Of a stretch of 32,113 nucleotides of DNA, positions 3,398-27,898 are shown one piece after another. The notes under the pieces were generated by a model. It had not been told where the DNA came from. It was given only the letters and a program-made list of their open reading frames with translations, and did not search any database. Where the stretch lies: contig JACZSH010000003.1 of assembly GCA_022574315.1 (NCBI GenBank), forward strand, positions 1 through 32,113. Direction: 5' to 3'. Numbering within the stretch: position 1 is the stretch's first letter; each line of letters begins with the position of its first letter. Source of the stretch: Chloroflexota bacterium. GTDB taxonomy: Bacteria > Chloroflexota > Dehalococcoidia > Dehalococcoidales > RBG-16-60-22. Both the position numbers and the translations under genes were made by a program.

Positions 3398-3408
3398 CTC
3401 TCTACAAG

Positions 3409-3531: not shown

Positions 3532-3702
3532 TCAAAAATCCCCCAGCGGAGCCTGTCCCATGGACTCCAGGAAAGAGGTGTCGTTGTGCCGGGTGAGAAT
3601 GAACTGCCCGTTTTCGTTCAATTCGATGTCCATCCGACCCCGGAATAGCTCGGCCGCGTTCCACTCGGTTTCCCCGTGTCTTATCAACAGGATTTCGGTC
3701 AT
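3532..3702 (-). pseudogene. Histidine phosphatase (PGM/CobC family) with a large in-frame internal deletion, 56 aa
   Basis: Manual translation: MTEILLIRHGETEWNAAELFRGRMDIELNENGQFILTRHNDTSFLESMGQAPLGDF*. The RHG N-terminus is joined directly to the typical NDTS C-terminus; TAATG overlap with the upstream gene. Confidence 0.8.
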
Positions 3703-4133: not shown

Positions 4134-4387
4134 TCGGTAGAGTCCGTTTTCTCGACTTCGATAGTGCATTCGGTGACCAGCGCCGCGAAGGCGCCGATGG
4201 CGGCCAGTACCGGCGCCGCCAGTATCCCCAGTGCTGCTACGGGTGCGCCAATCGACAGTGGAATCTCAATCAAGGTCCGGCCCTCGTGCACCAGGCGCAC
4301 CTTCCTGATGTTGCCTTCGTGCAGGAGCTGTTTCACTTTATCGACCACCTGGCTTCCCGATACGGTAAATTTTTCCGTCTTCGCCAT
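4130..4387 (-). CDS. DUF4342-like small protein
   Basis: VDKVKQLLHEGNIRKVR...IEIPL...LAAIGAFAALVTECTIEVEK pattern. Confidence 0.8.
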   Translation of the reverse strand: MAKTEKFTVSGSQVVDKVKQLLHEGNIRKVRLVHEGRTLIEIPLSIGAPVAALGILAAPVLAAIGAFAALVTECTIEVEKTDSTE

Positions 4388-4520
4388 AGTAAACCTCTTG
4401 GTATAATCAGAACCAACCCAGCCTTATCGGCTTTCGGTAAACGCGCCAGGTGAATTGTATTTTAGCTTTATACTACATCAATGACCCTTTGTCAATGGTA
4501 TCGGATATTTATTAGCTCCT

Positions 4521-11440: not shown

Positions 11441-12520
11441 TTATTTACCCTTCTTCTTTTTTACCGGCGCCAGCGTGCTGGCCAGTTCCTGGAACAGTTT
11501 GCGTTGCTCCTTGGTCAGCGATTCCGGAGTTGCTACGAAGAGTTTTACGATCTGGTCACCCCGCCCGTTTCGCGTCAGGTGAGCGATGCCCTGATTTTTC
11601 AAACGGAAAGTTCTGTCTGTCTGGCTGCCCGCCGGAATATTAAGTTTGACGGTATTCTGCAGGGTGGGCACTTCCACCTCGGTACCCAGGGCGGCCTGGG
11701 CGAAGTTAATCGGCAGTTCGTAGAGGATATCGTCACCGTGCCGGATAAAAAACTCGTGCTCCTGCACCGATAGGGTAACGTATAGGTCACCGCTAGAACC
11801 ACTCCTCGCCCCGGCGTTACCTTCGCCGCTCAGCCGTATTCGGGAACCGCTCTCCACCCCGGCGGGAATCCTGACCGCAATATGGCGTGGCTGCTTCTCC
11901 CTGCCCGTGCCCCGGCATTGTGCGCAGGTATCGGTGATTACCTTCCCTTCTCCCTGGCACTGGTCGCACAGGGTGGTATTGACGAATCTGCCAAAAAGGC
12001 TCTGCTGCACGCGCCGGACCTGCCCCGCGCCGTTGCATCGAGGACAGCGAGTGGGCTGAGTGCCCGGTTTGGCCCCGCTGCCGTGGCACCGGGAGCACAC
12101 TTCAGTCCGCTTTAGCTTTACCTCTTTCTCGCAACCGAAAGCCGCTTCCTCGAAGGTGATGGTGAACTCGTAATGCAGGTCAGCGCCCTGCTGGGGAGCA
12201 CGACGTCCGGCGTAATTTATACCGCCGAAGAAAGCGTCGAAAATGTCACCGAAACCGCCAAAGTCAAAACCCTCGAAATCCCGCGTGTAGGAACCGGCGG
12301 CACCGCTGTGTCCGTAACGGTCATAGGCGGCACGCTTGTTGGCGTCAGAAAGTACTTCGTAGGCTTCGTTTACTTCCTTGAATTTTTCCTCGGCCCCGTC
12401 ATTACGGTTTCGGTCGGGATGGTACTGGAAAGCAAGCTTGCGAAAGGCTTTCTTTAGCTCATCATCACTGGCATTCCGGGACACTCCCAGGACGTCGTAA
12501 TAGTCATGTTTGGTCACCAT
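11441..12520 (-). CDS. dnaJ: Chaperone DnaJ
   Basis: J domain with HPD, G/F-rich region and four CxxCxGxG repeats. Confidence 0.97.
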
Positions 12521-12610
12521 GAAAATATCCTTTTCAGCTCATCATCGCTGACATTCCGGGACACTCCCGGGACGTCGTAATAGTCATGTTTGGTCACCAT
12601 GAAAATATCC
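12456..12610. repeat. Tandem direct duplication (80-bp period) of the dnaJ start region
   Basis: 12456-12530 and 12536-12610 match over 75 bp with 3 mismatches. Confidence 0.95.
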
Positions 12611-12713
12611 CTTTTTCATAACCCATCCCCTGGGAAACGGCGCTACCCACCACCCTGATACGGAGACCGGTGGCACCGGAAACATTCCAGAAGGCAATAA
12701 TACCTCTAGTATG

Positions 12714-12742
12714 ATACTAGCAAGACAGGTGTCTACTGTCAA
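12714..12742 (-). promoter_or_regulatory. Putative dnaJ promoter
   Basis: TTGACA (12742-12737), 17-bp spacer, TAGTAT (12719-12714). The -10 sits in the palindrome CTAGTATGATACTAG. Confidence 0.6.
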
Positions 12743-12812
12743 GGCACAAAAAGGTCCACCGTGGCCGTCCGGACGCCCCGAAAATATTGGCCAAAAAGGT
12801 GACAGAATGCTA

Positions 12813-12841
12813 TTGACGAAATAGAACATATGTGCTAATTT
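12813..12841 (+). promoter_or_regulatory. Promoter of the virion module with an overlapping LexA-type (SOS) box
   Basis: TTGACG (12813-12818), 17-bp spacer, -10 TAATTT (12836-12841) with an extended TG. AGAACATATGTGCT (12823-12836) is one mismatch from AGAAC-N4-GTTCT. Confidence 0.65.
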
Positions 12842-12869
12842 GGCATTGTCAGTTACTTTGAGGTGGGCC

Positions 12870-13196
12870 ATGGAGCCAGCGTGGTACGAATTGGACGAAT
12901 GTGATGCCGAGCTCCGGAGCGAGGAAAATCAGGACCCGAACCGGCTCGATTTGCCGCCGGAATTCTGCCAGTACCGGGACGAAGGCTGTGACCTTGCCCG
13001 TTCCTGTCTCAATTGCCCATTCCCGCACTGTGTTTATGAGTTGCCCGGTGGCCGGCAGCGCTGGTTAAAAAAGAGGCGTGATTCGGAAATAAACCGGCTC
13101 TTCGCCGGTGAAGGTAAAGAGGTTAATGAGCTGGCCAGGATGTACGGTATCAGCCAGAGGACAGTACAGCGGGCGTTAACCAACGCCGCTAAATAG
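12870..13196 (+). CDS. Cys-rich domain plus C-terminal HTH (Mor-like) putative transcriptional regulator
   Basis: C-x6-C-x5-C-x2-C-x4-C followed by RRDSEINRLF..G..VNELARMYGISQRTVQRAL. Start set at ATG 12870 after GAGGTG. Confidence 0.65.
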   Translation: MEPAWYELDECDAELRSEENQDPNRLDLPPEFCQYRDEGCDLARSCLNCPFPHCVYELPGGRQRWLKKRRDSEINRLFAGEGKEVNELARMYGISQRTVQRALTNAAK

Positions 13197-13244
13197 CGCC
13201 AGAGAGCGGGATAAATATTTCGCCTAAAGGAGACTTGTCTGGAA

Positions 13245-14630
13245 ATGAATGATTCGATTTCGGCACAGCTGGCACGGCGTGACCTGACCAGAATCAAGGG
13301 CTACCGGGATTTTCTTGACTTTTATCATGGCCAGCAGTGGGCAGGCCGGGCAAGATGGGGGGAAAGGCATCTGGTTTTTAACTACGCCCGGGTCTTCATT
13401 GACAAGATTACCTCGTATCTCATGTCCGGGGTTAGTTTTGCGGTGGATGCCTCGACCGATTCTGACCAAGCCAGAGAAACGGCGCGGCGGGCAGAATCAG
13501 CCCTTCACCGCGTTTATGATGAAAACAACCTGGAACTGCTGGACCTGGAGACGGAAATCGATTGCGCCGTACTGGGTGACGCCTGTTACAAGATTATCTG
13601 GGATACCGCTGAGAAAAAGGTGAGGGTAACCGCGCCTGATGTCCAGGGTATCTATGCCTGGTGGTCGGGTGATGACACTTCCCGCATATGGCGGGTCGCT
13701 TCCCGGTACAGCCTCTCTGCCGAGGAGACCGAATTCCTTTACCGGGTGAAACCCAGGGGCAAGACAGCTGTCATCGTTGAGCTGTGGACGGCCAGCGACT
13801 TTGAACTCTATCTGGACAACGTCCTGGTAGAGAAAAAGCCCAATCCTTACGGTTTTATTCCCTTTATCATCTATCCCAACCTGCGCGAGCCGAAGAAATT
13901 CTGGGGAATATCCGATTTGCCCGCCATAATGGAATCACAGCGGGAGTTGAATCGGGCGATGAGCCAGCTTTCCCGTATCCTGGAGTTGTCCGGTAATCCC
14001 ATTGCCGTCCTGGAAAACGTGGAAGAATCCGAAGATATTGCTATCCGGCCGGGCGCCGTCTGGAATATCCCCGAGGACGCCAAAGCCTACCTGCTCGACC
14101 TGCTGCAGGGCGGCGGCATCAACCTTCATATCAGTTATATCGACTTGCTTTACCGCACTTTGCACGACATCTCGGAGTCACCCCGCTCCGCTTTCGGCGG
14201 CACGGAGAGAGACCTCTCCGGGGTGGCCCTCCAGATTGAGCTTTACCCCCTGTTGCAGAAGGTGAGGCGAAAGCGGATTATCCGTACCGCCGCTTACAAA
14301 CGGCGTAACGAGATGATTCTCCGCCTCCTGGAAAAATATCAGGGGGAAAATTTTGGGGACAACCGACTGCGTATCGTCTGGGCTCCGGTGCTGCCTCACG
14401 ATGTCACCAGTCAGGTCAATAACGAACAGACGCTGGTCCAGGCCGGTATCCATTCCCGGCGCCGGGCAATGGACGAGATTGGTGTCCAGGATCCCGAGGC
14501 TGAGTTTAAAAGATGGCTTGAGGAGAGAGAGACCATTCTCCGTATGAATAAGGAACTTAACGTCCGGTCCACCCGCAGCGAGGTGAGAGGGAGAGCTTCA
14601 TCGTCTCCGGTGGCCGGCGTTGAGGAATAA
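13245..14630 (+). CDS. Phage portal protein (SPP1 Gp6-like)
   Basis: 461 aa; DFYHGQQW, FNYARVFIDK, NPYGFIPF, GISDL and SGVAL motifs typical of SPP1-type portals; first gene of the head module. Confidence 0.85.
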   Translation: MNDSISAQLARRDLTRIKGYRDFLDFYHGQQWAGRARWGERHLVFNYARVFIDKITSYLMSGVSFAVDASTDSDQARETARRAESALHRVYDENNLELLDLETEIDCAVLGDACYKIIWDTAEKKVRVTAPDVQGIYAWWSGDDTSRIWRVASRYSLSAEETEFLYRVKPRGKTAVIVELWTASDFELYLDNVLVEKKPNPYGFIPFIIYPNLREPKKFWGISDLPAIMESQRELNRAMSQLSRILELSGNPIAVLENVEESEDIAIRPGAVWNIPEDAKAYLLDLLQGGGINLHISYIDLLYRTLHDISESPRSAFGGTERDLSGVALQIELYPLLQKVRRKRIIRTAAYKRRNEMILRLLEKYQGENFGDNRLRIVWAPVLPHDVTSQVNNEQTLVQAGIHSRRRAMDEIGVQDPEAEFKRWLEERETILRMNKELNVRSTRSEVRGRASSSPVAGVEE

Positions 14631-14647
14631 TCAGTGGAGGAACCTTT

Positions 14648-15136
14648 ATGGCGGATAACGAACAGGCATTGACCGATGAGTTGACGGCAGTCCGGGACAG
14701 GGTGGCTGAACTGGAACAGGAGCGGGAAATCCTCACCCGGGAGCTTGAGTCCGGGGCCCTCCGCATTACCGGGCTTGAGCAGACGGTGGCCGACCGGGAT
14801 GGTGAACTGGTCATACTCAAGGAAACGGTGGTGACGTCGGACCGGAAATTAACCGGGGTCAGCAGTTCCCTGGCTCAGGCGGTGGAGAGCTATCGGGAGC
14901 AGGTGGCGGTGGCTAACCCGGACGTGCCGGTCGAACTGATTGCCGGCGATACTATCGGCGCCGTCAACGAATCTCTGGAAAACGCCCGCACCCTGGTGGA
15001 TAAGGTGAAACAGGGCATTGAAGCCGAGGCATCCCGGGTGAAAGTGCCCGCCGGCGCTCCGCAACGCGCGCCGCTCGACCTGTCGGGGCTGTCTCCGCGG
15101 GAAAAAATACAATATGCGATTGGAGGTAACAGGTAA
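14648..15136 (+). CDS. Putative capsid scaffolding protein
   Basis: Acidic coiled coil between portal and capsid, with a short C-terminal helix LSPREKIQYAI. Confidence 0.7.
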   Translation: MADNEQALTDELTAVRDRVAELEQEREILTRELESGALRITGLEQTVADRDGELVILKETVVTSDRKLTGVSSSLAQAVESYREQVAVANPDVPVELIAGDTIGAVNESLENARTLVDKVKQGIEAEASRVKVPAGAPQRAPLDLSGLSPREKIQYAIGGNR

Positions 15137-16057
15137 ATGGCTTTAACACTGGCGGAAGCAAACAAACTGTCAAATGACATCCTGCTGCAGGGTGTGGTGG
15201 AGACCATCATCAAGGACTCTCCCATCCTGCAGCGGCTGCCCTTTATCGAGATTGTCGGTAACGGGCTGACCTATAACCAGGAAAAGACCCTGCCCAGCAT
15301 CGATTTCTACGATGTCGGTGATACCTGGGTCGAATCAACCCCTACTTTTGAGCAGAAAACGGCTAATCTGAAGATTATGGGCGGCGATGCGGATGTGGAT
15401 AACTTTCTGAAGTCCACCCGGAGCAACGTCCAGGACCTGGAAGCCGCCGTCGTCGAACTGAAGGCAAAGGCGGTCAAAGACAAGTTCGAAGAGGTCTTTA
15501 TCTACGGTGACGCCACGCCCAATCCCAAGGAGTTCGACGGCTTGAGAAAACTGATTGATACCACCTCGGCCGGTAACCAGGTAATCGCCATGGGGGCAAC
15601 CGGTGCCACGCTCACTCTGGTTAAGCTGGATGAGCTCATTGACGCCGTCAAGGGTGGTAAGCCCGATATGCTGCTCATGAGCCGGCGCACCCGCCGCAAG
15701 ATTAATGCCCTGGTCAGGGCCAGCGGCGGCATGGTGGACAGCGACCGGGACCAGTGGGGCAACTTTGTCCAGTTATGGGACGGTGTTCCCATCGGTGTTA
15801 ACGACTGGATACTGGATACCCACGCCCTCAGCGGCAGCCTGGAGACCGGGACTACCGGCGGCACCTGCTCCATAATCTATGCCATCCAGACCGGAGAGTG
15901 GGCGCTTTGTGGGTTGACCAGTCCCGGGCACCTGACGGTGGAGCCAATCGGCTCTATGGAAAGTAAAGATGCCACCCGCACCAGGGTCAAGTGGTACGTG
16001 TCCCTGGCGCTCTTCAGCGCGGTTAAGGCGGCCGCTTTAATCGGCGTTCAGGACTAA
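15137..16057 (+). CDS. Major capsid protein (HK97-like fold)
   Basis: 306 aa; MALTLAEA, GVVETII..SPILQRLPF, GGDADVDNF and EFDGLRKL patterns of phage capsid proteins; GGAGGT RBS. Confidence 0.85.
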   Translation: MALTLAEANKLSNDILLQGVVETIIKDSPILQRLPFIEIVGNGLTYNQEKTLPSIDFYDVGDTWVESTPTFEQKTANLKIMGGDADVDNFLKSTRSNVQDLEAAVVELKAKAVKDKFEEVFIYGDATPNPKEFDGLRKLIDTTSAGNQVIAMGATGATLTLVKLDELIDAVKGGKPDMLLMSRRTRRKINALVRASGGMVDSDRDQWGNFVQLWDGVPIGVNDWILDTHALSGSLETGTTGGTCSIIYAIQTGEWALCGLTSPGHLTVEPIGSMESKDATRTRVKWYVSLALFSAVKAAALIGVQD

Positions 16058-16080
16058 AGAAATAAAGGAGGCAGAAAAAA

Positions 16081-16482
16081 ATGGCTTTTTCAGATCCGGG
16101 AAAAGGAAGAATTATCGAGCAGGGGGAAGGACTGGTCAGGGTTACCCTGGCCGAGGCCTGCAAAGCCGGTGACATTCTCGGTTACAGCTCCGGGTGGAAG
16201 CGGGCGCTGGCCACTACCGGCACGGCTGTTCAGGGTCGGCTGGTAGCCGGCGAGGCTGGCGCCAGTGGTGATGTCATCACCGCTTACCGCCGTGCCGTGA
16301 TCAGCGGTTACTCGGGAGGCACTGCCGGCAACGCCGTCTATGTCGCCGAGGGTACGGATAACGGCCAGGTTACGGAGACCCAGCCCACCACTACCGGCGA
16401 CTGCGATACGCTCATCGGCTATATGGCGTCGGCGACCGTGGCCGCTCTGGAGCCCGGCTCGAGGACTGACTCGACCGCTTAG
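16081..16482 (+). CDS. Putative capsid decoration/cement protein
   Basis: Small Gly/Ala/Thr-rich beta protein directly after the capsid gene; strong AAGGAGG RBS. Confidence 0.55.
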   Translation: MAFSDPGKGRIIEQGEGLVRVTLAEACKAGDILGYSSGWKRALATTGTAVQGRLVAGEAGASGDVITAYRRAVISGYSGGTAGNAVYVAEGTDNGQVTETQPTTTGDCDTLIGYMASATVAALEPGSRTDSTA

Positions 16483-16494
16483 TATTTCGAAAAA

Positions 16495-16521
16495 ACGGGG
16501 GAGGGGAACCCCCTCCCCCGT
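16495..16521. terminator. Perfect 12-bp GC-rich hairpin inside the virion operon
   Basis: ACGGGGGAGGGG-AAC-CCCCTCCCCCGT; a T-tract follows only on the minus strand. Confidence 0.55.
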
Positions 16522-16536
16522 ATCTGGAGGAAGAAA

Positions 16537-16878
16537 ATGACCGAGATTTACGTAACCCAGCCGGGAACGCACCGGACCGGCGTGACGGCGGTAGATTCCG
16601 CCGACCCGTCAGATACCAGCGGCGCGGTTGACACCAAAGGTTACCAAGAGTGCCGGTTTGACATAACTGTTTCCGGCACCGATTTTACCAGCCTTGAAGT
16701 CCAGGCCCTGTTCTGGAACTCGCGACAGGAAAAATGGATGGGCGGTGGTAAAAGGACGTTGACCTCGACCGGGCAACATGCCCTGGTGGTCGATTCAAGA
16801 GGGGCGATTATATTCCTGAAGGTAAACGCTTTCGTGGGGACGAGCTTCTCCCTGTCAGCGGATTATGCCTTGAGTTAG
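16537..16878 (+). CDS. Hypothetical virion-associated beta-rich protein
   Basis: 113 aa; GGAGG RBS; inside the structural operon. Confidence 0.6.
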   Translation: MTEIYVTQPGTHRTGVTAVDSADPSDTSGAVDTKGYQECRFDITVSGTDFTSLEVQALFWNSRQEKWMGGGKRTLTSTGQHALVVDSRGAIIFLKVNAFVGTSFSLSADYALS

Positions 16879-16889
16879 GAGGTAATACC

Positions 16890-17507
16890 ATGTTGAAACT
16901 GGCGGGAGAAGTGATTGAAGGACAGCTCGCCGACCATCTGGCTGAGCTTGACGCCCATACGCGTAATGCGGAAGAGTTTATTAAAGTAAATCAGTACGAG
17001 CTGGGCGGTTACCACAGTACTTTTTCAACGACTGCGGTGGCTGCGGATAGAATACACGCTATTCCTTTCCACGTTAACCGGAAAAGAACCTACCAGTATG
17101 CCGCCATTTATGTAACCGTGGCCGGTAGTGCCGGCAAGAAAGCCAGGTTGGGGATATACGCCGATGACGGTACGATTCTGCCGGGCGCGCTCATCGAGGA
17201 CTGGGGGGAAGTCGCTATCGACTCAACGGGGTTAAAAGCAATCGATATAACCGATAGACAGCTTGATAAAGGGCTTTACTGGGTGGTAATGCACACTGAA
17301 GATGCCTTTACCTTGCGCATTCGGACCGCCGCTTCCTTCAGCCCTCTGGGTATCCGGTCTACGGGTGGTGCCGCTTTGGGTGGCGTCGAAGGCGGGTATT
17401 TTAAGGATACTGCCTATGCGGTATTACCTGACCCGCTGACGGGCCTGGCGGCTTTAAGCTCGTTGCCGTTCATAAATATAGCCCTGATGGTAAAAAGTAA
17501 TGATTAG
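16890..17507 (+). CDS. Putative head-fibre/spike or receptor-binding protein
   Basis: Short helical stalk followed by a beta domain with ARLGIYADDG..PGALI, a pattern I associate with phage fibre proteins; GGAGGT RBS; lower GC than neighbours. Confidence 0.5.
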   Translation: MLKLAGEVIEGQLADHLAELDAHTRNAEEFIKVNQYELGGYHSTFSTTAVAADRIHAIPFHVNRKRTYQYAAIYVTVAGSAGKKARLGIYADDGTILPGALIEDWGEVAIDSTGLKAIDITDRQLDKGLYWVVMHTEDAFTLRIRTAASFSPLGIRSTGGAALGGVEGGYFKDTAYAVLPDPLTGLAALSSLPFINIALMVKSND

Positions 17508-17518
17508 GAGGCTACCCT

Positions 17519-17713
17519 ATGCCAGTAATAAGATATGCCCAAATATTCAAAGACGGCCAGCTAATCGACAGCCAACCTTACGAGGTGTCTGACGAGGAAC
17601 TGGCGCTGGAGAATGCCGATCAGGTAATCAAACGACTTTCCGCAAAAGCGGATAACGAGATGACCACCCCTGAAATGGCACAGTTCTTGAAAGCGCTGGC
17701 GCGGGCAAGATAA
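17519..17713 (+). CDS. Small hypothetical protein (possible fibre partner or chaperone)
   Basis: 64 aa; GGAGG RBS; follows the fibre-like gene. Confidence 0.5.
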   Translation: MPVIRYAQIFKDGQLIDSQPYEVSDEELALENADQVIKRLSAKADNEMTTPEMAQFLKALARAR

Positions 17714-17729
17714 AGACGAGGAGGTAACG

Positions 17730-18362
17730 ATGAACCTGACTGATATGAGGGCCATAGTCCGGCGTGACCTTCATGATGAAGACGCCGGCAACTACCGCTG
17801 GACGGATAATGAGATGGACAGGCATATCGCCCACGCCGTAAAGGGCTTCTCCGAATACCTGCCCTGGGAGCAGAAAACCACTATCGCCACCACCTCCGGC
17901 TCCCGGGAGATTGATATCTCCGCGGTAACAGGCAGGGTAATGGTCGAGGCGGCCGAGTATCCGGTGGATAATTTCCCCCGGCGCTACCAGCGGTTCTCCT
18001 TATGGGGTGACACCCTGAACCTGCTTGGGGACGAGATACCGGACGGCTCCAACGCTTATATCTACTACGGCAAACTGCATACCCTTGACGGCGCCACTTC
18101 CACTATCCCCGCCCGGCATGAGGACCTGATTGCCGCCGCCGCCGCCGGTTATGCCGCTATCGAGTGGGCGGTCTACGCCGTCAACCGGGTCAACGTCGGT
18201 GGCAGCGTCACCCCGGAGATGTTTTTAAGCTGGGGCAGGGAGAAGCTGGCCTATTTCCGGCAGGAGATGCAGCGACTCGGCCGGAGACACCGGGTCAGGG
18301 TCCGCTCCCTCTATAAACCTTACTACCCGGTCGTGTCTGAATCAACCGATTACGGTCCCTGA
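17730..18362 (+). CDS. Putative head-tail adaptor/connector protein
   Basis: MNLTDMRAIVRRDLHD....RWTDNEMDRHI N-terminal helices, a beta insert and IPARHEDLI..AA, resembling phage adaptor proteins. Confidence 0.65.
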   Translation: MNLTDMRAIVRRDLHDEDAGNYRWTDNEMDRHIAHAVKGFSEYLPWEQKTTIATTSGSREIDISAVTGRVMVEAAEYPVDNFPRRYQRFSLWGDTLNLLGDEIPDGSNAYIYYGKLHTLDGATSTIPARHEDLIAAAAAGYAAIEWAVYAVNRVNVGGSVTPEMFLSWGREKLAYFRQEMQRLGRRHRVRVRSLYKPYYPVVSESTDYGP

Positions 18363-18365
18363 TTT

Positions 18366-18530
18366 TGAGGATTAAAAGGGATGAAACCCCTATTCCAGAC
18401 CCTCCTCTTTTCTTGAAGAAGAGATAACTTGAAGGAGCGTCTAAGAGGGGCGAAGCCCCTCTTCTACACCTCTCCCCCTTCCCCTTGCCAGGGGGAAGGG
18501 GGATTAAGGGGGACAGGGTCACTAAAATAA
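18366..18530 (+). repeat. REP-like double-hairpin repeat (one degenerate and one intact copy)
   Basis: AAGAGGGGCGAAGCCCCTCTT (18443-18463), then TCCCCCTTCCCC-N7-GGGGAAGGGGGA (18473-18503) and a G-rich tail. Confidence 0.8.
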
Positions 18531-18551
18531 CAACCAAAGAGGTAAAGTAGT

Positions 18552-18860
18552 ATGACCATAGAAAAAAGATTATCCAAGGAAGCCTTCGCTCTGGTGGGCA
18601 ACCCCGAAGACACCACCACCTGGCATTTACCCCACCACAAAAAGAATATCCCGGGCGCCGTTAAAGGCAAAATCGACCTGGAAAAGACGGTCGACTGGCA
18701 CCTGATGGCAATGGCGGTCGGTGAGCTTTCTCTCGGCGTCAATCGCCGGCGGAAAATCGAAGCCGACCCGGCGCAAATCCTGGTCGCCGCGGCTCACCTG
18801 GCCTCCCATTACCGTCAGGCCGGACACCCGCTCCCCGATGTACTGGCGGCTCTGGTATAG
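18552..18860 (+). CDS. Hypothetical protein with WHLPHH and HLASHY motifs (phage head-associated domain-like)
   Basis: 102 aa; GAGGT RBS; motif pattern recalled from phage head-module proteins, not verified. Confidence 0.55.
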   Translation: MTIEKRLSKEAFALVGNPEDTTTWHLPHHKKNIPGAVKGKIDLEKTVDWHLMAMAVGELSLGVNRRRKIEADPAQILVAAAHLASHYRQAGHPLPDVLAALV

Positions 18861-18936
18861 ACGGCGCTGTCGGGCACCCGTCTCCTGACTTCCTTACCTG
18901 GTGAAGGAATCGGAGAGAACCGTCAAAGGAGTAACT

Positions 18937-19227
18937 ATGCTGGAAAAATTATATCAAAAGCTGTGGACGAGGCTGGGTGGCCGACCCTGGACCTATATCC
19001 TGCGGGATACCTGGCATAAGCTTGAGGGACTCTGGATTATCGGCCTTGTCGCCGTCGGCGCCCTGCTCGGACACTGGCTCTGGGAGCTGGTATTCTGGTT
19101 CCTCCTCGTCTTTGCCCTGGGCTATATCGCCGGTCACCTTTTCTGGGGGACCCGGTATATCCCTTACCAGCCGGGCGATGCTGATACCGGGGCCAGGCAG
19201 GCTCTGGGAAAAGGAGTGGTGAAGTAA
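18937..19227 (+). CDS. Small two-TM membrane protein (holin-like)
   Basis: ATG 18937 after AAGGAG; basic amphipathic N-terminus, two TM helices and a polar C-tail; TAATG coupling to the next gene. Confidence 0.5.
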   Translation: MLEKLYQKLWTRLGGRPWTYILRDTWHKLEGLWIIGLVAVGALLGHWLWELVFWFLLVFALGYIAGHLFWGTRYIPYQPGDADTGARQALGKGVVK

Positions 19228-21233
19228 TGCGAAACTTAACCTCAACTTTGCTCACTGCCCAGAAACAGCCGTCGGCGCTGCCTTTTCTTAAAATAGAGGC
19301 GAGCAATAAGATTGCCGGCGTGGTCCGCTACGACTGGACACGGCTTTACACCGGCGCCGAGGACGACTCTTTCCACGGTATGGCCATGCCCGGCGACGGC
19401 TCCATGGTCAGGGTCAGGACAACCCCGCCCGCCGATTCCCGGAAGCTCTACCGCCAGCGAGTTGTTGACCCCGGCCCCGCCAGTGATTTTTCCCAGTGGA
19501 CTTATACCAATCAGTATAATGCCGCCGTAGTTGCCTGTGCCGCTCTGGACGCTGAAGTCTCCATCTTCTGGATAGACAGCGCCACCCGGAAAATTCAGCG
19601 CATCGTCAGCACTGACTACGGAGCTACCTGGGGCAGCCCGGAAACGGTCGATTATTCCCCCTCCACTTCCATTTTTGGCCTGACCGCGGCTTATAAGCCC
19701 AATGGTGACCTGGCTATCTTCTTTGCTGACCAGGCTAACCTCTATGTAAAAAAGCACCTCTCCGGGCAGTGGCAATCAAAGTCAGCCTGGGACAAGACCA
19801 CCGGCAACCTGTCCGGTGTCACCGTGGTCTATGACGCCGATTGGAACCTGCTGGTCACCGGGCAAGACACGTCGGGTAATTTCAAGTTGTGGAGCCTGGT
19901 TTACGGTGATGGCGGCGATGTCGCCGCCGGCAGCTGGTCGGCTTTGCCGGAGCTTGCCTCGGCTCCGTCCGATGGCGAATTTGAGTACTGCCGGCCTTTC
20001 CTGGCTAAACCTGACGTTTATCGCGGTTGCTTTGTCGAAAAGTTCACCGGCACTGACGCCTATGACCGCCCTTTCTGGTCGCACTCCGTTCTCGGGGCCG
20101 GCTTCGTGGCTAACCTGTGGCGGGAACCGGTGCCCTTTAATCTCTCCTCGGCGTACGGTCTGGCTATCGCTCACTACGGCAATTACAGCTGGCTGTCCAG
20201 TCCGGCCGGGGTCTGGCGGGCCGTTCTTACCGTGCAGTCCCTTGACCTGACCGCGGATGTATTGGCGGCCAGGCAGGAGACGGAAGAGACGTTGGGAAAA
20301 CTGACCGTGGAACTGAACAATGACGAAGGCCAGTACGCTTCTCCGGGACAGGGGAGCTTGTCTGTCCTCGATACCGGTTGTCAGCTTGATTTCAGTCCCG
20401 GTTACCGTACTGTTGTCGGCGACGAAGTAAGCGCCGGCCTCACCTTCAGCCTTGAAGCCGGCGAGCATACCAGCTCCGGCGGCAGTGCCCGCCTTATTCT
20501 TCACGCCCGCGATGGTTGGGGCGCCATCGCCGACTGGAAAGCCAGGCACCAGTTCCGCTGGAATAAAGACTCCGACCAGGCGAGCGTGAAGGATATCCTT
20601 GCCTTTGTCCTGGCCAGGCTGGGCTTACAGTTGACCGTCAAATCCCAGTCGTCGGTCATTACCGATTATTATCCTGATTTCACCTTCGGGCCGGGTATCA
20701 CCGGAGAAACGGTCATTCGAAAACTCCTCTCTTTCGTCCCGGATGTCCTCTTTATCGAGGGTAATCAAGCCTGCCTGGTCAATCCTCTATCGTCGGATAG
20801 CTCGGTCTACAGCTATGGCGCCGGGCATCAGGTTCTGGAAGGCAGGTATCGGTGGGGAGCCTGGGGGATTAACCGGGTCCAGGTGGCAGGTTATGACACC
20901 GGCGGCGATGAGGTTATCATCGCCGACAGTTTTGCCTGGGACGAGATAGACAAACTGTATGACCGGTTGCGGCAGATTGAAGACTTGAATATCGGTACCG
21001 TGGCCGAGGCACAGCAGAGAGGTGCCGCTCACCTGAGAGGGGCGGAGATAGCCTCGGTCGGTGGCCATATTTTGGTTCCGGTCAACTGCGGCCAGCAGAT
21101 GTATGACGTAATTGATATTACGGATAGCCGTGCCGGACTTGGTGCCGAGAAAAAACGGGTGGTCGGATTGGTTACGGTTTACCGTCCCCGCCGCGGTGAA
21201 TACCGGCAGTGGCTGCGGCTGGGGGCAGTCTAG
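19227..21233 (+). CDS. Large tail-tip-like protein: N-terminal beta-propeller (Asp-box) plus C-terminal baseplate-hub-like region
   Basis: 668 aa; Asp-box STDYGATW; the C-terminal half has a hub-like pattern (LTVELNN..G, SVKDIL..VL, PVNCGQQMYDVIDITD). The fold is inferred. Confidence 0.55.
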   Translation: MRNLTSTLLTAQKQPSALPFLKIEASNKIAGVVRYDWTRLYTGAEDDSFHGMAMPGDGSMVRVRTTPPADSRKLYRQRVVDPGPASDFSQWTYTNQYNAAVVACAALDAEVSIFWIDSATRKIQRIVSTDYGATWGSPETVDYSPSTSIFGLTAAYKPNGDLAIFFADQANLYVKKHLSGQWQSKSAWDKTTGNLSGVTVVYDADWNLLVTGQDTSGNFKLWSLVYGDGGDVAAGSWSALPELASAPSDGEFEYCRPFLAKPDVYRGCFVEKFTGTDAYDRPFWSHSVLGAGFVANLWREPVPFNLSSAYGLAIAHYGNYSWLSSPAGVWRAVLTVQSLDLTADVLAARQETEETLGKLTVELNNDEGQYASPGQGSLSVLDTGCQLDFSPGYRTVVGDEVSAGLTFSLEAGEHTSSGGSARLILHARDGWGAIADWKARHQFRWNKDSDQASVKDILAFVLARLGLQLTVKSQSSVITDYYPDFTFGPGITGETVIRKLLSFVPDVLFIEGNQACLVNPLSSDSSVYSYGAGHQVLEGRYRWGAWGINRVQVAGYDTGGDEVIIADSFAWDEIDKLYDRLRQIEDLNIGTVAEAQQRGAAHLRGAEIASVGGHILVPVNCGQQMYDVIDITDSRAGLGAEKKRVVGLVTVYRPRRGEYRQWLRLGAV

Positions 21234-21314
21234 AGGGTTGTCTCCCTTTGCGTCTTTATAAGCAGAGTTTCCTCTGAGAAGTGTTCTGAGCGGGCGGATT
21301 TCCCGGAGGCCGGT

Positions 21315-21515
21315 GGAGGGAGTTTTAGAGGGACGCCGTCCCTCTAACATAGCTATTTCCCTTTTCCCTTACTAAGGTCTTGCCTCAAATGTCATTCTGA
21401 GGAACGAAGTGACGAAGAATCTGTGGGTGGGGCTGGGGGTTCAAAGATAGTCCCCACCATTTCCCCTCTCACCTTGCCAAAAGGAAGGGGATACCGGGGA
21501 TGGGGTTAATAAGAT
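21315..21515 (+). repeat. REP-like repeat cluster with a nested second element type
   Basis: Hairpin TTAGAGGGACGCCGTCCCTCTAA (21325-21347); GTCATTCTGAGGAACGAAGTGACGAAGAATCT (21391-21422); TTCCCCTCTCACCTTGCCAAAAGGAAGGGGATACCGGGGATGGGGTT (21461-21507). Confidence 0.75.
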
Positions 21516-21534
21516 ATCAGGGAGTGTAAAGAAA

Positions 21535-21747
21535 ATGAGACTGCGAAAAGCGATTTTAAGGAGTTTCAATTCCGGAAATTATACCGCTACCATTCAGATT
21601 GCCGGCAGCTATAAAGTATATCTGGAAGATATTTCCGTGGCGCGGAACCTGCCTGCCGCCGAAATGACCACCGGTAGAAAAGCGGCGGTTGTCTTTTTTG
21701 ATGACTATAGTCCCAAAGAGGCGGTGGTCATCGCTGTCTATACGTAG
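21535..21747 (+). CDS. Small beta-rich protein, possible OB-fold spike component
   Basis: 70 aa; GGGAG RBS; strand pattern (YTATIQI..G, V.VARNL, GRKAAVVFFD, AVVIAVY) reminiscent of gpV/gp5 OB domains. Confidence 0.5.
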   Translation: MRLRKAILRSFNSGNYTATIQIAGSYKVYLEDISVARNLPAAEMTTGRKAAVVFFDDYSPKEAVVIAVYT

Positions 21748-21798: not shown

Positions 21799-22194
21799 TT
21801 AGTCGTGCTCTCGTGCCATGCCTCGGGCGATGCTCTTTAGCATGGTCAGGATGCCGAGTGTCGCGCGCTGCACCTCTACCGACTCTTCGGCTAACATCTT
21901 GGCCACAAACGGGTCCAGGTGCCGTCCGCTGTAACTTGAGCTTCTTTCTTCGGCAACGCCTGAACTATGCGGAGACAGGAAGCCGGCCAGCGTAAAAAGC
22001 TCGTCTTCGTCAAAACCCAGCGGTTTAGCGATGCGGCGAAGAATATGGGCCGAGGGGAAACGTTCGGCCCGCTCGATACGACCCAGGTGTGACGACGATA
22101 CCCCTGACGTAGACGAAAGCTCTTGCAGTGTCAGTGGTATCGAGATTCTCTGCTGCTTGAGTATTCTACCCAGGTTATGATTTTCCCTTGTCAT
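21799..22194 (-). CDS. XRE-family HTH transcriptional regulator
   Basis: LGRILKQQR...LTLQELS..SGVSSSHLGRIERAERFPSAHILRRIA; GGGAG RBS. Confidence 0.9.
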   Translation of the reverse strand: MTRENHNLGRILKQQRISIPLTLQELSSTSGVSSSHLGRIERAERFPSAHILRRIAKPLGFDEDELFTLAGFLSPHSSGVAEERSSSYSGRHLDPFVAKMLAEESVEVQRATLGILTMLKSIARGMAREHD

Positions 22195-23126: not shown

Positions 23127-26039
23127 TTGATACACCGGGTTGAAGTTCGACTAAAAAGTCACCTGCCGGATGCCCGGGGACAGGGCCTGGTCAGGGACAT
23201 GCATGACCTTGGTATCAACACCGTTACCGATGTCCGGGTGGCTGATATCTACTGGCTGGACGCTGACCTGTCTCCCGGTGAACTGGACCTGGTTGGCCGC
23301 GGCCTCCTCGCCGACCCGGTCACTCAGGAATACCGGTGTTTTACTTCGGCGGCGGATAATGGGAAAAGCTCGCCTTCTCAAGGAGAGGGGGATACCGGGG
23401 GTGAGGTTGCTAACAAATACGAGGTTACTAACCACTCCCATACCGTCGAGGTGGCTTACAACGCCGGTGTTAGTGACCCCGTTGCAGAATCCATCCTGAA
23501 GGCGATTCGTGACCTGGGTATCAATGGTGCCCGTGCCGTCAGGACGTCCCGGCGCTATTTCATCACCGGGCAGCTGGATGACGGGCAAATGGAGGCTGTT
23601 TGCAGTCGTCTGCTGGTGAATCCCATCATCCAGCACACTGTTGAAAAAGAACACGTCGGCTTCCCGGAAAACCCTGAATATAACTTTAAGCTGGAGACAG
23701 TAGACATCCTGGGGGCGGATAAGGCCGGACTTTCCGGACGCTTCGGCTTTGCCGATGACGAGCTTCAGGCTATCATTGCCTACTATCGACAGCAGGGCAG
23801 GAATCCCACCGACGTCGAACTGGAGACGCTGGCGCAGACCTGGTCCGAGCACTGCGTCCACAAGACATTCAAGGGAAAGTTTATTTCCAACGGGCGGACT
23901 ATCGATAATCTGCTCAAGAGTACCATCATCAAGGCCACCCGTGAGCTGGATAAACCGTGGTGTCTCTCCGTTTTCGTGGATAATGCCGGGGTGATTGACT
24001 TTGACGGCCGCTGGGCGCTCTGTTTCAAGGTCGAGACCCATAACCATCCCTCGGCGTTGGAACCTTACGGCGGTGCCGCTACCGGTATCGGCGGCGTAAT
24101 TCGTGACCCTCTGGGCACCGGCCTCGGTGCCAAACCGATTTTGAATACGGATGTTTTCTGTTTCGGCCCGCCTGACCTGCCTTATGAGAAATTACCCGCC
24201 GGGGTGTTGCATCCCCGCCGGGTTTTTAAGGGCGTCCGGGCCGGCGTGGCTGACTACGGTAACCGACTCGGTATCCCCACCCTCAATGGCGCCGTGCTCT
24301 TCGATGAGAGATACGTGGCTAACCCGCTGGTTTACTGCGGGACGCTGGGCTTGATGCCGTTTAGCCTCGCTCTCCAGGGAAAACAGAAGGCCGGCGACCT
24401 GGTGGTGGTCGCCGGCGGCCGCACCGGGCGGGACGGTATTCACGGTGTTACCTTCGCTTCCGTGCCCCTTACCGAGATGTCGACCGATGCCTCTTCCAGC
24501 TCGGTCCAGATCGGCAATCCCATCGTTGAAAAGAAGCTTATCGACGTCCTCCTCCAGGCTCGCGACCGCGGCCTGTATTCGAGGATAACCGATTGTGGCG
24601 GCGGCGGTCTTTCTTCGGCAGTGGGGGAAATGGGAGAAGAGACCGGCGTGCGCGTCGACCTTGAAAAAGTGCCCCTGAAGTACTCCGGCCTGTCTTATTC
24701 TGAAATCTGGATATCGGAATCTCAGGAAAGAATGATAATGGCCGTCCCTCCGGAGTGTATCGAGGAGCTGCTGGCTCTCTTTACCGGTGAAGATGTGGAA
24801 GCCACCGTTATCGGCGAGTTTACCGACGACCGGCGTTTGCAGCTGTTCTATCAGGGCAACCGGGTCGGCGATATCGAGATGGAATTTCTGCATAACGGTC
24901 TTCCCCAGCTCGTCAGTGAAGCAACCTGGGAGAAACCGTCCTACGCTGAGCCTGATTTTGCCTCGCCCGCTGACCTGGGCGAGTCTCTGCGCCGTGTTCT
25001 CGGTGCCTGGAACGTCTGCAGCAAGGAGTGGGTGATTCGGCAGTACGACCACGAGGTGCAGGGCGGCAACGTCCTCAAGCCGCTGGTGGGCCGGGACGAA
25101 GACGGCCCCGGCGATGCCGCCGTCATCCGGCCGTTGCTCGATTCATCCCGGGGCGTTATTGTCGCCAACGGCATCAACACCCGCTACGGCGATATTGACC
25201 CCTACTGGATGGCGGCCTCGGCCATTGACGAGGCGCTGCGCCAGGTAATCGCCGTCGGCGGTAACCTGCGCCGGGTGGCTTTGCTGGACAATTTCTGCTG
25301 GGGCAACACCGACCGACCCGAGATGCTGGGGGCGCTGGTGCGTGCCGCCCAGGCCTGTCACGATATGTCGCTGGCTTACCAGACCCCTTTTATCTCCGGC
25401 AAAGACAGTCTGAATAACGAGTTCGAGTCTGACGGTCGGAAAATAGCCATTCCCCACACCCTCCTCATCTCGGCGCTCGGCGTTATGGAGGACGTAAACC
25501 GTGCCCTGTCCATGGATTTCAAACAGGCCGGCAACCTGGTCTATATTATCGGCGCCACCGGCCATGAGCTGGGCGGCTCCGAGTACCTGGCGCTGCACGG
25601 GATTACCGGTAACAGCGTCCCCAGGGTAAATCCGGACGAGGCGAAAAAACTGATGGATTGCCTGAGCGCCGCCACCGAAAAAGGACTGGTCAGGTCATGC
25701 CACGACTGCTCTGAAGGCGGCATCGGCGTGGCCATAGCCGAGATGGCTTTTGCCGGTGGCCTGGGCGCTAACGTACAGTTGAAATCGGTGCCCCTCGCTG
25801 AGCCGGTTGATAGGGACGACTTTATCCTCTTCTCCGAGTCGAACAGCCGCTTCCTGGCCGAAGTGGCCCCGGAGAAACAGGCCGAGTTTGAGCGTGCCAT
25901 GAGCAACACCAGCTTCGCCGCTATCGGCCGGGTGACGGATGATGGGCGGCTGGTAATCCACGGCGTGGAGGGCGCTAAAGTGGTCGACCTGCCCATTGAC
26001 GAACTGAAAGAAGCCTGGCAGAGGCCGCTGAGGTGGTAG
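23127..26039 (+). CDS. purL: Phosphoribosylformylglycinamidine synthase PurL with N-terminal PurS-like domains
   Basis: QTWSEHCVHK, KVETHNHPS, DCGGGGLSS, SESQERM, QYDHEV and SGKDS motifs; two PurS-like repeats (LLADPV, LLVNPI); TTG start. Confidence 0.96.
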   Translation: MIHRVEVRLKSHLPDARGQGLVRDMHDLGINTVTDVRVADIYWLDADLSPGELDLVGRGLLADPVTQEYRCFTSAADNGKSSPSQGEGDTGGEVANKYEVTNHSHTVEVAYNAGVSDPVAESILKAIRDLGINGARAVRTSRRYFITGQLDDGQMEAVCSRLLVNPIIQHTVEKEHVGFPENPEYNFKLETVDILGADKAGLSGRFGFADDELQAIIAYYRQQGRNPTDVELETLAQTWSEHCVHKTFKGKFISNGRTIDNLLKSTIIKATRELDKPWCLSVFVDNAGVIDFDGRWALCFKVETHNHPSALEPYGGAATGIGGVIRDPLGTGLGAKPILNTDVFCFGPPDLPYEKLPAGVLHPRRVFKGVRAGVADYGNRLGIPTLNGAVLFDERYVANPLVYCGTLGLMPFSLALQGKQKAGDLVVVAGGRTGRDGIHGVTFASVPLTEMSTDASSSSVQIGNPIVEKKLIDVLLQARDRGLYSRITDCGGGGLSSAVGEMGEETGVRVDLEKVPLKYSGLSYSEIWISESQERMIMAVPPECIEELLALFTGEDVEATVIGEFTDDRRLQLFYQGNRVGDIEMEFLHNGLPQLVSEATWEKPSYAEPDFASPADLGESLRRVLGAWNVCSKEWVIRQYDHEVQGGNVLKPLVGRDEDGPGDAAVIRPLLDSSRGVIVANGINTRYGDIDPYWMAASAIDEALRQVIAVGGNLRRVALLDNFCWGNTDRPEMLGALVRAAQACHDMSLAYQTPFISGKDSLNNEFESDGRKIAIPHTLLISALGVMEDVNRALSMDFKQAGNLVYIIGATGHELGGSEYLALHGITGNSVPRVNPDEAKKLMDCLSAATEKGLVRSCHDCSEGGIGVAIAEMAFAGGLGANVQLKSVPLAEPVDRDDFILFSESNSRFLAEVAPEKQAEFERAMSNTSFAAIGRVTDDGRLVIHGVEGAKVVDLPIDELKEAWQRPLRW
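23369..23416 (+). repeat. REP-like element inserted in frame within purL
   Basis: CAAGGAGAGGGGGATACCGGGGGTGAGGTT closely matches the intergenic copies at 28010-28036 and 21480-21507. Confidence 0.8.
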
Positions 26040-26807: not shown

Positions 26808-26989
26808 ATAATACCGTTTCACTTCCCTGATATGTTTCACCTAGCTACCATGTACATGACTTAATCTTTATTTGGGGTATTGACTATTCCATAAATAGGA
26901 CTATAATAATCTCACTCGACGTAAAACAACCTAACAACATGTTTGATTGACGAGAGCAGGCGCTTTGCTTGGATAGGTCGAGGGTGATA

Positions 26990-27898
26990 ATGTCTATACA
27001 AGAATTGAATCGTGCTACATATGCAACATATGCACTGAAAACCTATTATAACTACATTAAAGCATGGGCTGTGTGTATTGAAAGACTATATGGTTCGGGT
27101 GATGATGAGGGAAATACATTCGTAGACAAATTCAAAACTACTGCTGCCTTTAGTCGTGTTGAAGGGGGAGCTTCAATCTCTGAAGAATTCAGTAATGCAT
27201 ACAGTAGAGGTCGATTAACTCTCAAAGCTATAGAACAGCTGCCTATTGAAGAATATCCCAAACTTGCTCTTTCTGCAAATTTCTGGCTCCCAGTACAATC
27301 ATATTATGCTATTCATGGCGTGGGTTTAGCTGCAATGATAATATTAGGTAGAGGTTCGCCTCAGACCCACCGCAGTTTTCGTGCAGATTTTGGAGACCTA
27401 GTTAACAGGTTTTATCCCGAGCCACTCTGTGGACGTTGTGTGGGAGGTCCAGGGCCAAAAAACTTTTCATTTCAAAAGTTAAGTACTTCTATAGATAAAG
27501 TTACTAGACAAAACCAACTTGCTGACCCTACTTTCGTTGAAGAAATTGAAAACTTTATTGGAAAATCCTTGTCCACAACTCGCGAAAAATTCTTACAAGT
27601 TAGGTTTGATGAAAAGCGCGTTGAGAGAAGGAAAAAAAGACTATCATATAAAGAAAAGAATGAATGTTGTAAGAGAGAGCATAGTACATCAATCTGCGAC
27701 CTAATATATCGTATGCGTGTCCGCTCCAATTACGATAGTCCTGACATGTATTTATTTGCTTCAGATGACGCAGAGAATGCCATAAAACACTATAGAGACC
27801 TTCGATACTTAACTCAAATATTAATTACTGGTTTAGATATTTTAATAGAAAGACGTATTGGGCGACTAAAAATGGCCGACTTAACGAGTAGATTCTAA
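26990..27898 (+). CDS. Low-GC hypothetical protein, possibly HEPN-like
   Basis: AT-rich ORF with its own promoter (TTGACT 26880-26885, TATAAT 26902-26907). QSYYAIH and YRMRVRSNY resemble HEPN motifs. Start set at ATG 26990. Confidence 0.6.
   Translation: MSIQELNRATYATYALKTYYNYIKAWAVCIERLYGSGDDEGNTFVDKFKTTAAFSRVEGGASISEEFSNAYSRGRLTLKAIEQLPIEEYPKLALSANFWLPVQSYYAIHGVGLAAMIILGRGSPQTHRSFRADFGDLVNRFYPEPLCGRCVGGPGPKNFSFQKLSTSIDKVTRQNQLADPTFVEEIENFIGKSLSTTREKFLQVRFDEKRVERRKKRLSYKEKNECCKREHSTSICDLIYRMRVRSNYDSPDMYLFASDDAENAIKHYRDLRYLTQILITGLDILIERRIGRLKMADLTSRF

Follow-up and report, generated by a model that had tools for sequence, protein, structure and literature searches.

What is a compact set of phage head and tail genes doing among the housekeeping genes of a bacterial chromosome, and does it represent the residue of a phage or a particle that the host has made its own? 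The question is raised by a 32,113 nt stretch of DNA (hereafter the window: positions 1 to 32,113 of the forward strand of contig JACZSH010000003.1, assembly GCA_022574315.1; contig C147 in our numbering) from a Chloroflexota sediment bacterium of the class Dehalococcoidia, order Dehalococcoidales, whose genome is a metagenome-assembled genome (MAG) of 1.39 Mb and 82.7% completeness. Thirteen open reading frames (ORFs) on the + strand, here named g1 to g13 and free of internal stops, occupy positions 12870 to 21747 (12840-21747, or ~9 kb, in the ORF listing) and include genes for a portal protein, a major capsid protein (MCP), a head-to-tail adaptor and a tail-tip protein. An earlier note, made from the sequence alone, had described 13 intact, co-oriented genes without frameshifts, as is indeed the case, and had proposed a vertically inherited particle similar to a gene transfer agent (GTA) rather than a decaying prophage. 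Our analysis largely supports this interpretation, its particle and packaging side being a prediction from the genes. The data are best explained if the Dehalococcoidia as a class possess an ancient particle system of phage origin that is fixed in the chromosome and has the cluster as its main locus; the predicted particle would consist of a head and a very short tail in a podovirus-like layout, without tube or tape measure. That this is a domesticated particle is well supported; that it is a GTA is what we infer.

The epidemiology of the system was addressed through its MCP, which was found in 31 of 41 genomes of the nearest relatives, in 22 of 24 other genomes of the family, in 165 of the 219 genomes of the order that are at least 85% complete, nearly always as a single copy, and in 175 of 301 genomes of the class, a tally which includes the unpublished genome G434, on which no claim rests. 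A sample of the phylum gave 41 positives in 301 genomes at E <= 1e-20, and the 20 positives outside the class showed 47-56% identity. Identity to the MCP of the window was 94% within the genus, 82-90% within the family, 67-83% within the order and 55-70% within the class; for EngA, used as the host marker, the corresponding values were 92%, 64-74%, 54-66% and 49-58%. In trees built from 30 genomes the two proteins have 12 of 27 splits in common; with labels shuffled 2000 times, the mean was 0.2 splits and the highest count was 3. The Mantel correlation of their distances (r = 0.66) was not reached in any of 2000 permutations. It should be noted that both are single-gene quick trees in which some placements differ, for example that of the f10 pair. 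In 80% of 435 pairs the MCPs were less distant than the EngA proteins, and the median terminal branch was 0.11 for the MCP and 0.36 for EngA. The purL gene was dropped as a host marker beyond the order, where its identity falls from 61% to ~37%, and was replaced by EngA.

Selection was analyzed by comparing the window with the congeneric genome G002. The ratio of nonsynonymous to synonymous divergence (dN/dS) was 0.09 for the portal, 0.135 for the MCP, 0.09 for g5, 0.23 for g1, 0.31 for g3 and 0.32 for the adaptor, compared with 0.15-0.22 for the flanking genes, while synonymous divergence (dS) was equal in the cluster (0.19-0.33) and in the flanks and purL (0.18-0.35). In 12 loci fetched from across the order, which represent at least eight families, the core order g1, portal, g3, MCP, variable stretch, adaptor, g10 or g11, g12 and g13 was conserved in 11, the twelfth being cut by a contig end. 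Flanks of yqeY, xre or dnaJ recur in 11 of the 12: yqeY lies to the right in five loci, dnaJ-gpsA-plsY-der to the left in three, and a xre-type gene recurs as a neighbor. Orthologue searches, synteny, congruence with the host tree and dN/dS below 1 were the checks that the earlier note had proposed, and on all four the results agree with its claim of vertical inheritance. The class-wide MCP, its congruence with EngA and the purifying selection lead us to regard the cluster as very probably an element that is inherited vertically and maintained by selection, and not as a decaying prophage.

An ordinary defective prophage, recent or slowly decaying, or a part of an active temperate phage whose other genes lie off the contig, would explain why the gene content is purely phage-like, why deletions and in-frame stops occur in several lineages, and why IMG/VR classes contigs of this kind as viral. 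Yet such an element would hardly be distributed class-wide as a single copy in congruence with the EngA tree, nor would it show a dS equal to that of its flanks with dN/dS of 0.09-0.32, or modules which are conserved although they lie up to hundreds of kb apart (see below). Scanning of the window ORFs with Pfam and PHROG produced no integrase, replication, tube, tape-measure or endolysin family, and no tRNA or att site was found in the window, in agreement with the absences that the note had listed; nor does the cluster contain a long helical ORF as a candidate tape measure. The GC content of the cluster (0.53-0.585) falls within that of most of the flanks (0.47-0.63), which bears out the host-like composition described before. 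A functional or recent prophage of the Caudoviricetes would be contiguous and patchily distributed and would carry integrase, replication and lysis genes; what we find is class-wide, dispersed and without such genes in the window. Among the 50,697 phage records of INPHARED the best matches were at 40.1% identity for the MCP and 25.5% for the portal. At least 212 IMG/VR contigs carry relatives, and the 80 which were kept are 2.2-12.7 kb long, 81-91% identical, and consist over a median of 80% of their length of the same genes in the same order; to judge by this gene content they are pieces of the host locus and not phage genomes. Closest homologues in complete prophages, an outcome that the note had considered, were not seen in either database, the phages being at most 40% identical and the 80 loci being fragments of the cluster. 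A prophage is for these reasons very improbable.

The note had also stated that no terminase was recognizable, which holds for the window but not for the genome. Six-frame searches with the Pfam models PF03237, PF03354, PF04466, PF17289 and PF20441 in up to 25 genomes gave nothing linked to the cluster, and after these blanks the system was read as a terminase-free particle. This reading was overturned when the clustering of ORFs from 30 fetched genome loci and the window identified divergent large (TerL) and small (TerS) terminase subunits; the Pfam blanks are false negatives, and such a blank is no proof of absence. The TerL family has 445-490 aa, adjoins the cluster in several genomes and shows a Walker A motif (ARQGGKNE), a Walker B motif (LLE(I/V)DE) and an RNase H-type nuclease signature (DLAGE / DATGVG / GHDD), with the ATPase and nuclease motifs invariant in seven sequences from the order, the class and another class. 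Its database matches are weak but consistent (Terminase_6C at 6.3e-5, over the cut-off in one member; phrog_5909 at 7.6e-6). The TerS family, of 110-160 aa, is encoded upstream of TerL and matches phrog_1889 at 6.6e-9. Both genes are present on contig C66 of the window genome, where the orphan large terminase that the note had suggested looking for is thereby found. Across the order TerL was detected in 183 of 219 genomes: 150 carry both TerL and MCP, 15 the MCP only, 33 TerL only and 21 neither, in a table whose genomes, being kin, are not independent.

The arrangement of these modules is the feature that sets the system apart from any element able to move itself. TerL, portal and MCP are all present in each of 25 closed or near-closed MCP-positive genomes. 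Within nine of these they lie within ~25 kb of one another, but in the other 16 at least one of them is set apart, by more than 40 kb in 14 genomes and by its location on a different contig in two. The distance from TerL to the portal-MCP pair is ~675 kb in G106 and ~605 kb in G075; genus g122 has, in each of its six genomes, a module of MCP, adaptor and hub at a distance of 45-86 kb from a TerL-portal pair; and the separation is 170 kb in G252 and exceeds 600 kb in both G279 and G304. The same break-up was seen directly in class-level loci. Since the modules are conserved and yet scattered, they do not form an excisable or self-packaging element, and this is the strongest argument for domestication. 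With TerL, portal and MCP tens to hundreds of kb apart the particle could not carry its own gene set; packaged DNA would therefore be expected to come mostly from the host, and the particle would work like a GTA. Such an inability is the hallmark of GTAs, and the evidence for it here is the dispersal of the genes.

Two further readings have to be weighed against the terminase and the dispersal. A helper-dependent satellite similar to the capsid-forming phage-inducible chromosomal islands (cf-PICIs) would produce heads itself and depend on an infecting phage for tails or other functions, which would suit a set of head genes with TerS and TerL and only a minimal tail, as well as the extra TerS-TerL pairs of some genomes. 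Like our system, cf-PICIs are chromosomal and have their own capsid, portal and small terminase but no full tail. They are, however, mobile and patchy and carry an integrase with regulation and replication modules, none of which were seen for the Dehalococcoidia cluster. The window has no integrase, primase, replication or excision genes, the modules are dispersed and vertically inherited, the cluster has an adaptor and a tail hub of its own, and the extra TerS-TerL pair of genome G073 sits among the housekeeping genes sufC, sufB and plsX and a radical SAM gene. We therefore consider a satellite highly unlikely. A capsid-based compartment with a cargo of protein or RNA instead of DNA might account for the unusually high conservation of the MCP and for the 15 genomes of the order with an MCP and no detected TerL, although most of the latter are fragmented MAGs that are 85-91% complete (one is 99% complete). 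Against this stand the portal, adaptor, TerS and TerL, conserved with the MCP in all 25 closed or near-closed genomes, and the absence from the cluster of any cargo-targeting or enzyme gene. Encapsulins, in which an HK97-fold shell encloses a cargo enzyme, do without portal and terminase, whereas the Dehalococcoidia system has portal, adaptor, TerS and TerL. There is little to recommend the compartment, and we give it a very low probability.

The domesticated, DNA-packaging particle that we favor can be followed through the genes of the cluster, which are all on the + strand and are separated from g1 to g9 by gaps of 0-54 nt. Clear ribosome-binding sites had been claimed for most of them, and a Shine-Dalgarno-like motif is present 8-18 nt upstream of the start in 12 of the 13 ORFs; in the thirteenth, g11, the motif fits if translation starts at ATG 18937 and not at GTG 18901. 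The first gene, g1 (12870-13196), encodes a Mor-like regulator whose middle part is rich in Cys and which ends in a helix-turn-helix (HTH); it matches phrog_836 (late transcriptional activator) at 8.8e-7 and the Pfam family Mor at 4.8e-4 (20.6 bits, under the cut-off of 24.9). Its start codon, ATG 12870, is preceded by GAGGTGG, and the gene lies directly 5' of the portal gene in 13 loci, including loci with portal and MCP separated. We regard g1 as a candidate activator which would turn the operon on. The portal protein, g2 (13245-14630), matches SPP1_portal at 3.3e-26 and phrog_64 at 1.8e-42. Between portal and MCP lies g3 (14648-15136), coding for a coiled-coil-like protein of 162 aa and net charge -10 without family match in Pfam or PHROG; orthologues of 46-83% identity, mostly as partial matches, are present in all 12 fetched order loci, and its acidic coiled-coil sequence and canonical position suggest a scaffold. 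The MCP itself, g4 (15137-16057), is of HK97 type, matches phrog_212 at 2.1e-70 and exceeds the Pfam cut-offs for GP7, Phage_capsid and SU10_MCP (the last at 8.7e-8, with 32.4 bits against a cut-off of 24.1). Portal, scaffold-like g3 and MCP would, going by their families, assemble a procapsid, which the unlinked divergent TerS-TerL, with its conserved motifs, would fill with DNA.

Downstream of the variable stretch g5-g8, the gene g9 (17730-18362) encodes a head-to-tail adaptor of the SU10 type (PF24175, SU10_adaptor, at 8e-8, with 33.4 bits against a cut-off of 27). Of 30 loci, 23 have the adaptor: 11 of the 12 fetched from the order, the remaining one being cut off with its contig, and 12 of 18 others. 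Phage SU10 (Kuravirus) is the phage on which the Pfam families SU10_MCP and SU10_adaptor, both matched over their cut-offs in our cluster, are built; it is, however, a free lytic phage, and homologues of its nozzle, needle and fibre were not found in the cluster with Pfam or PHROG, the nozzle position being taken by the hub protein g12 with its propeller. This 668 aa protein (19227-21233) combines an N-terminal beta-propeller with a C-terminal hub similar to gp27, Mu gp44 and gpD. By sequence it gave no Pfam match, no PHROG match below 0.075 and no PDB profile match at E up to 1. Its AlphaFold2 (AF2) model has a predicted local distance difference test score (pLDDT) of 91.5 and a predicted TM-score (pTM) of 0.86. 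In Foldseek searches of the PDB the C-terminal domain matched 7b5h_AJ, the baseplate of the Anabaena contractile injection system (CIS), at 2.5e-18; 3d37_A (a Neisseria tail protein) and Mu gp44 (1wru) were matched with a TMt of 0.74, and further matches were to VgrG, T4 gp27 and the 80alpha baseplate. The BFVD matches are annotated as "Tail protein" and "Phage protein D", and a search of the ESM Atlas with residues 1-335 gave nothing informative (best score 0.79). The modeled fold confirms g12 as a probable tail tip, and adaptor and hub would together seal the portal and form the tip of a stub tail. As regards the gene identities given in the earlier note, portal, capsid and adaptor are upheld by family matches and the tail tip by fold, the scaffold is a reading from charge and position, and the decoration protein was not borne out.

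Three small genes complete the cluster. Neither Pfam nor PHROG matches g10 (18552-18860), a small conserved protein with homologues in 39 of the 80 IMG/VR loci and in several genome loci. The product of g11 (18937-19227) is a small membrane protein with two transmembrane segments and a maximum Kyte-Doolittle (KD) hydrophobicity of 2.13 over 19 residues; this hydrophobicity is kept, with 24 of 26 homologues reaching a KD of at least 1.6, and suggests a holin-like protein. Penicillin-binding protein (PBP) transpeptidase and FtsW/RodA families were absent from all five genomes searched, with controls positive in 10 of 14. An endolysin would presumably not be needed because the hosts are without peptidoglycan genes, and g11 might open the membrane as a holin, which in a host without wall may be sufficient for release. 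The last gene, g13 (21535-21747), always follows g12 and encodes a small, conserved, beta-rich protein without family match. It is matched by tblastn in 10 of the 12 fetched order loci (34-80% identity), was grouped by ORF clustering in 14 of 30 fetched genome loci and the window, and has a dN/dS of 0.08 relative to genome G018.

The stretch between MCP and adaptor is the part of the cluster that differs between lineages. In the window it holds g5-g8 (16081-17713; 133, 113, 205 and 64 aa). Comparison of loci L013, L014, L016-L019 and L021-L024 with the IMG/VR loci L025-L104 identified three cassette types which are mutually non-homologous, homology among them having been ruled out at hhalign probabilities below 1%, and no cassette at all in L022. 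Type A, that of the window, is composed of proteins of 113, 205 and 64 aa with g5 and was found in 15 of the 80 IMG/VR loci; type B (154, ~224 and ~75 aa) was found in 38, and type C (168 aa and 554-615 aa) in 25, each locus being scored by the first gene of the type. The 224 aa protein of type B is lectin-like (Laminin_G_3, 3.1e-11). In type A, g7 shows a weak match to phrog_21562 (tail protein, 1.8e-5) which makes it a candidate fibre; its structure model has a pLDDT of 51.2, which is too low to search for related folds. The types are discordant with the phylogeny of MCP and EngA: family f1 has all three of them, and the clade of G027, G031 and G040 carries B, A and A, respectively. Either the cassettes have been exchanged between lineages or they represent an old polymorphism. 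The cassette is a candidate adhesion or receptor-binding module, and it would serve, together with the beta-propeller of g12, as the adhesin of the particle.

A second possible surface component was observed beside the cluster. In 11 loci (L013, L014, L016-L021, L116, L118 and L119) a large Ig/TIG-domain protein of 520-850 aa, sometimes in two copies, is encoded divergently from g1, and in genome G033 it stays with g1 through an inversion. The nearest homologue in the window genome is located on contig C51, with 30-37% identity. This protein could be a part of the system or else a surface structure that the system binds.

Several observations weigh against a functional GTA-like system, and they concern loss of the genes, their decay and the rate at which they change. 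No match to the MCP was obtained in 54 of the 219 order genomes and in 126 of the 301 class genomes, which shows the system to be dispensable, and it is missing from whole families (f59, 0/20; f60, 0/9; f64, 0/7). Deletion remnants were found in two MCP-negative genomes, G167 (L126, contig C2) and G033 (L127, contig C1), where ~290 residues from the portal N-terminus are joined directly to the last 71 or 419 residues of g12 and where g1, g13, TerS and TerL are still present; losses by deletion are frequent. In-frame stops (TGA, TAA or TAG) or splits are present in the portal of G312, G356 and G252 and in the TerL of G356, G357, G498, G763 and G651, and these could be pseudogenes, frameshifts or sequencing errors. 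The TerL of the window genome is itself incomplete, with ~330 codons before the contig ends, and lacks a canonical start codon. The 33 genomes with TerL and no detectable MCP, and the multiple copies or fragments of TerL in G246, G312, G158, G080, G209, G073 and G074 (loci L128 and L129), which number three to eight in some genomes, indicate that TerS-TerL may have a life of its own; TerS and TerL also remain open in all three closed genomes (1.4-1.5 Mb) of genus g32, and TerL may be kept there for a reason of its own. No tail fibre was identified with confidence in the cluster. Finally, the MCP evolves more slowly than EngA, which is unusual even for a GTA and may point to another role.

This last point leads to the remaining rival, in which the particle is domesticated but its selected function is not gene transfer: a killer particle of the PBSX kind that adsorbs to competitors and harms them, an infection-triggered defense acting as an assembly decoy or through abortive packaging of host DNA, or a vehicle for the export of DNA or protein. 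All of the evidence for domestication applies equally to it, the very strong conservation of the MCP is not something that the GTA model requires, and a variable, lectin-like cassette beside a beta-propeller hub would fit adsorption and killing under diversifying exchange. On the other hand, TerS and TerL are conserved and the nuclease and ATPase motifs are intact, which argues for the packaging of DNA, and family scans of the cluster, in which the PADLOC library was not included, found no toxin, effector or defense-family domain. Particles of the PBSX type also package host DNA, such that their boundary to GTAs is only functional. We consider a function other than transfer rather unlikely, and a DNA-packaging, GTA-like particle remains in our opinion the probable product of the cluster. 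In every respect that sequence can address, the system appears GTA-like.

Comparison with known systems shows where the particle would stand. The GTA of Rhodobacter capsulatus (RcGTA) and its alphaproteobacterial kin is likewise a chromosomal head-tail cluster without integration or replication genes, passed on vertically within a large clade and maintained by purifying selection; other loci hold further parts of it, and its particles cannot carry their own gene set. RcGTA differs from the Dehalococcoidia system in that its main cluster includes the terminase and its tail, with tube and tape measure, is of siphovirus type; ours has a TerS-TerL that is often unlinked, no recognizable tube or tape measure, an SU10 adaptor and a propeller-hub tail tip. 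The function of RcGTA has been demonstrated, while the Dehalococcoidia system is known from its genes and resides in Chloroflexota without peptidoglycan genes. By these sequence features it is not a member of the RcGTA family. PBSX of Bacillus subtilis is also a chromosomally fixed, phage-like particle which packages host DNA and does not propagate itself, packaging being a prediction in our case. It differs in its contractile tail, its single contiguous element, its narrow range of hosts and its induction by the SOS response, whereas the Dehalococcoidia system combines a minimal tail with dispersed genes and a class-wide distribution. BaGTA of Bartonella, VSH-1 of Brachyspira, Dd1 of Desulfovibrio and VTA of Methanococcus, compared here by description only, resemble it as independent domestications of structural modules of tailed phages.

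Tailed phages are known to have been domesticated into GTAs independently in only a few cases. We know of no GTA from Chloroflexota and of none that is podovirus-like. Tentatively, we propose that the system may be a further independent GTA lineage, of the same age as the class Dehalococcoidia. Neither Chloroflexota nor podovirus-like minimal tails would have been represented among GTAs before it. It would reside in hosts without a wall, would perhaps be released by a holin-like protein alone, and would have its range of recipients set by an exchangeable lectin-like cassette. A class-wide, selected particle system would add a new and very old case of the GTA type, unusual in that it lacks a tube and combines a propeller-hub tail tip with an unlinked, divergent terminase and an exchangeable adhesin cassette. 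Chloroflexota dominate many sediments and aquifers and include the organohalide respirers used in bioremediation; if the proposal is true, the particle could be a main route of gene flow in Dehalococcoidia of the subsurface and of marine sediments, for example for dehalogenase islands. The carriers include closed genomes from the family that has Dehalogenimonas among its named relatives, which makes particle fractions, proteomes and viromes open to examination. There are also two warnings in these data, namely that IMG/VR files at least 212 fragments of a host locus as viral contigs and that Pfam terminase models miss the TerL family in six-frame genome scans.

No prior description of a Dehalococcoidia particle system was found in the full-text literature, the subscription journals lying outside this coverage. 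A recent preprint on Dehalococcoides mobile elements (10.64898/2026.09.15.751708) describes, in its main text, a different element, IME1; that main text contains no occurrence of "gene transfer agent", "GTA", "terminase" or "portal", and the supplements, which possibly hold tailed-virus contigs, are outside this statement.

The cluster is flanked in the window by genes whose coordinates and families agree with the dnaJ and xre-yqeY-purL assigned to them before. On the left, dnaJ occupies 11441-12520 on the - strand. The junction between it and the cluster contains an 80 nt tandem duplication (12453-12612, 94% identical) composed of the 5' end of dnaJ and upstream bases, which is possibly the scar of the rearrangement that put the cluster beside dnaJ in this family; a 95 aa ORF on the - strand (12584-12871) overlaps the second copy (12533-12612). 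On the right, the xre-type HTH gene (21799-22194, - strand; HTH_31 at 3e-9 and HTH_3) is a conserved neighbor, with orthologues of 58-78% identity near the cluster in L014, L018, L019, L021 and L126, and a role as a regulator of the cluster is speculative. Beyond it follow yqeY, purL and purQ. The remaining genes of the window are host housekeeping genes, encoding trpE/G-like proteins, OTCase, EngA, PlsY, GpsA, DnaJ, YqeY, PurL/Q, a radical SAM enzyme and an amidase. Two patches of low GC content, one of 0.39 at 27-28 kb with a 309 aa ORF (26969-27898) lacking a Pfam match, the other of 0.47 at 3-4 kb (3000-4500) with HicB-like and DUF123 genes, have the appearance of small foreign islands without connection to the cluster.

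The intergenic gap between g12 and g13 contains a 40 nt repetitive extragenic palindromic (REP)-like repeat (21468-21507), in line with the host REP-like repeats that had been placed in the intergenic gaps of the cluster. The element is host-wide, with ~14 places on 10 contigs of the genome and three related copies in the window (at 21468, 23369 and 28000). A stretch of ~34 nt in the same gap (21389-21422) matches many unrelated contigs in DNA and RNA runs and looks like a second dispersed repeat; for the window as a whole, the matches in two RNA runs are repeat pieces of 30-60 nt only, and a further run (X20) is probably DNA. The identity of PurL (23127-26039), ~61% within the order and ~37% outside it, where the match starts near residue 220, suggests that the order carries a different PurL, seemingly a long, PurS-fused form, or a xenologue. 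One of the REP-like copies (23369-23408) falls within the long purL ORF that was called from TTG 23127, and the true start of purL is therefore probably downstream of 23408.

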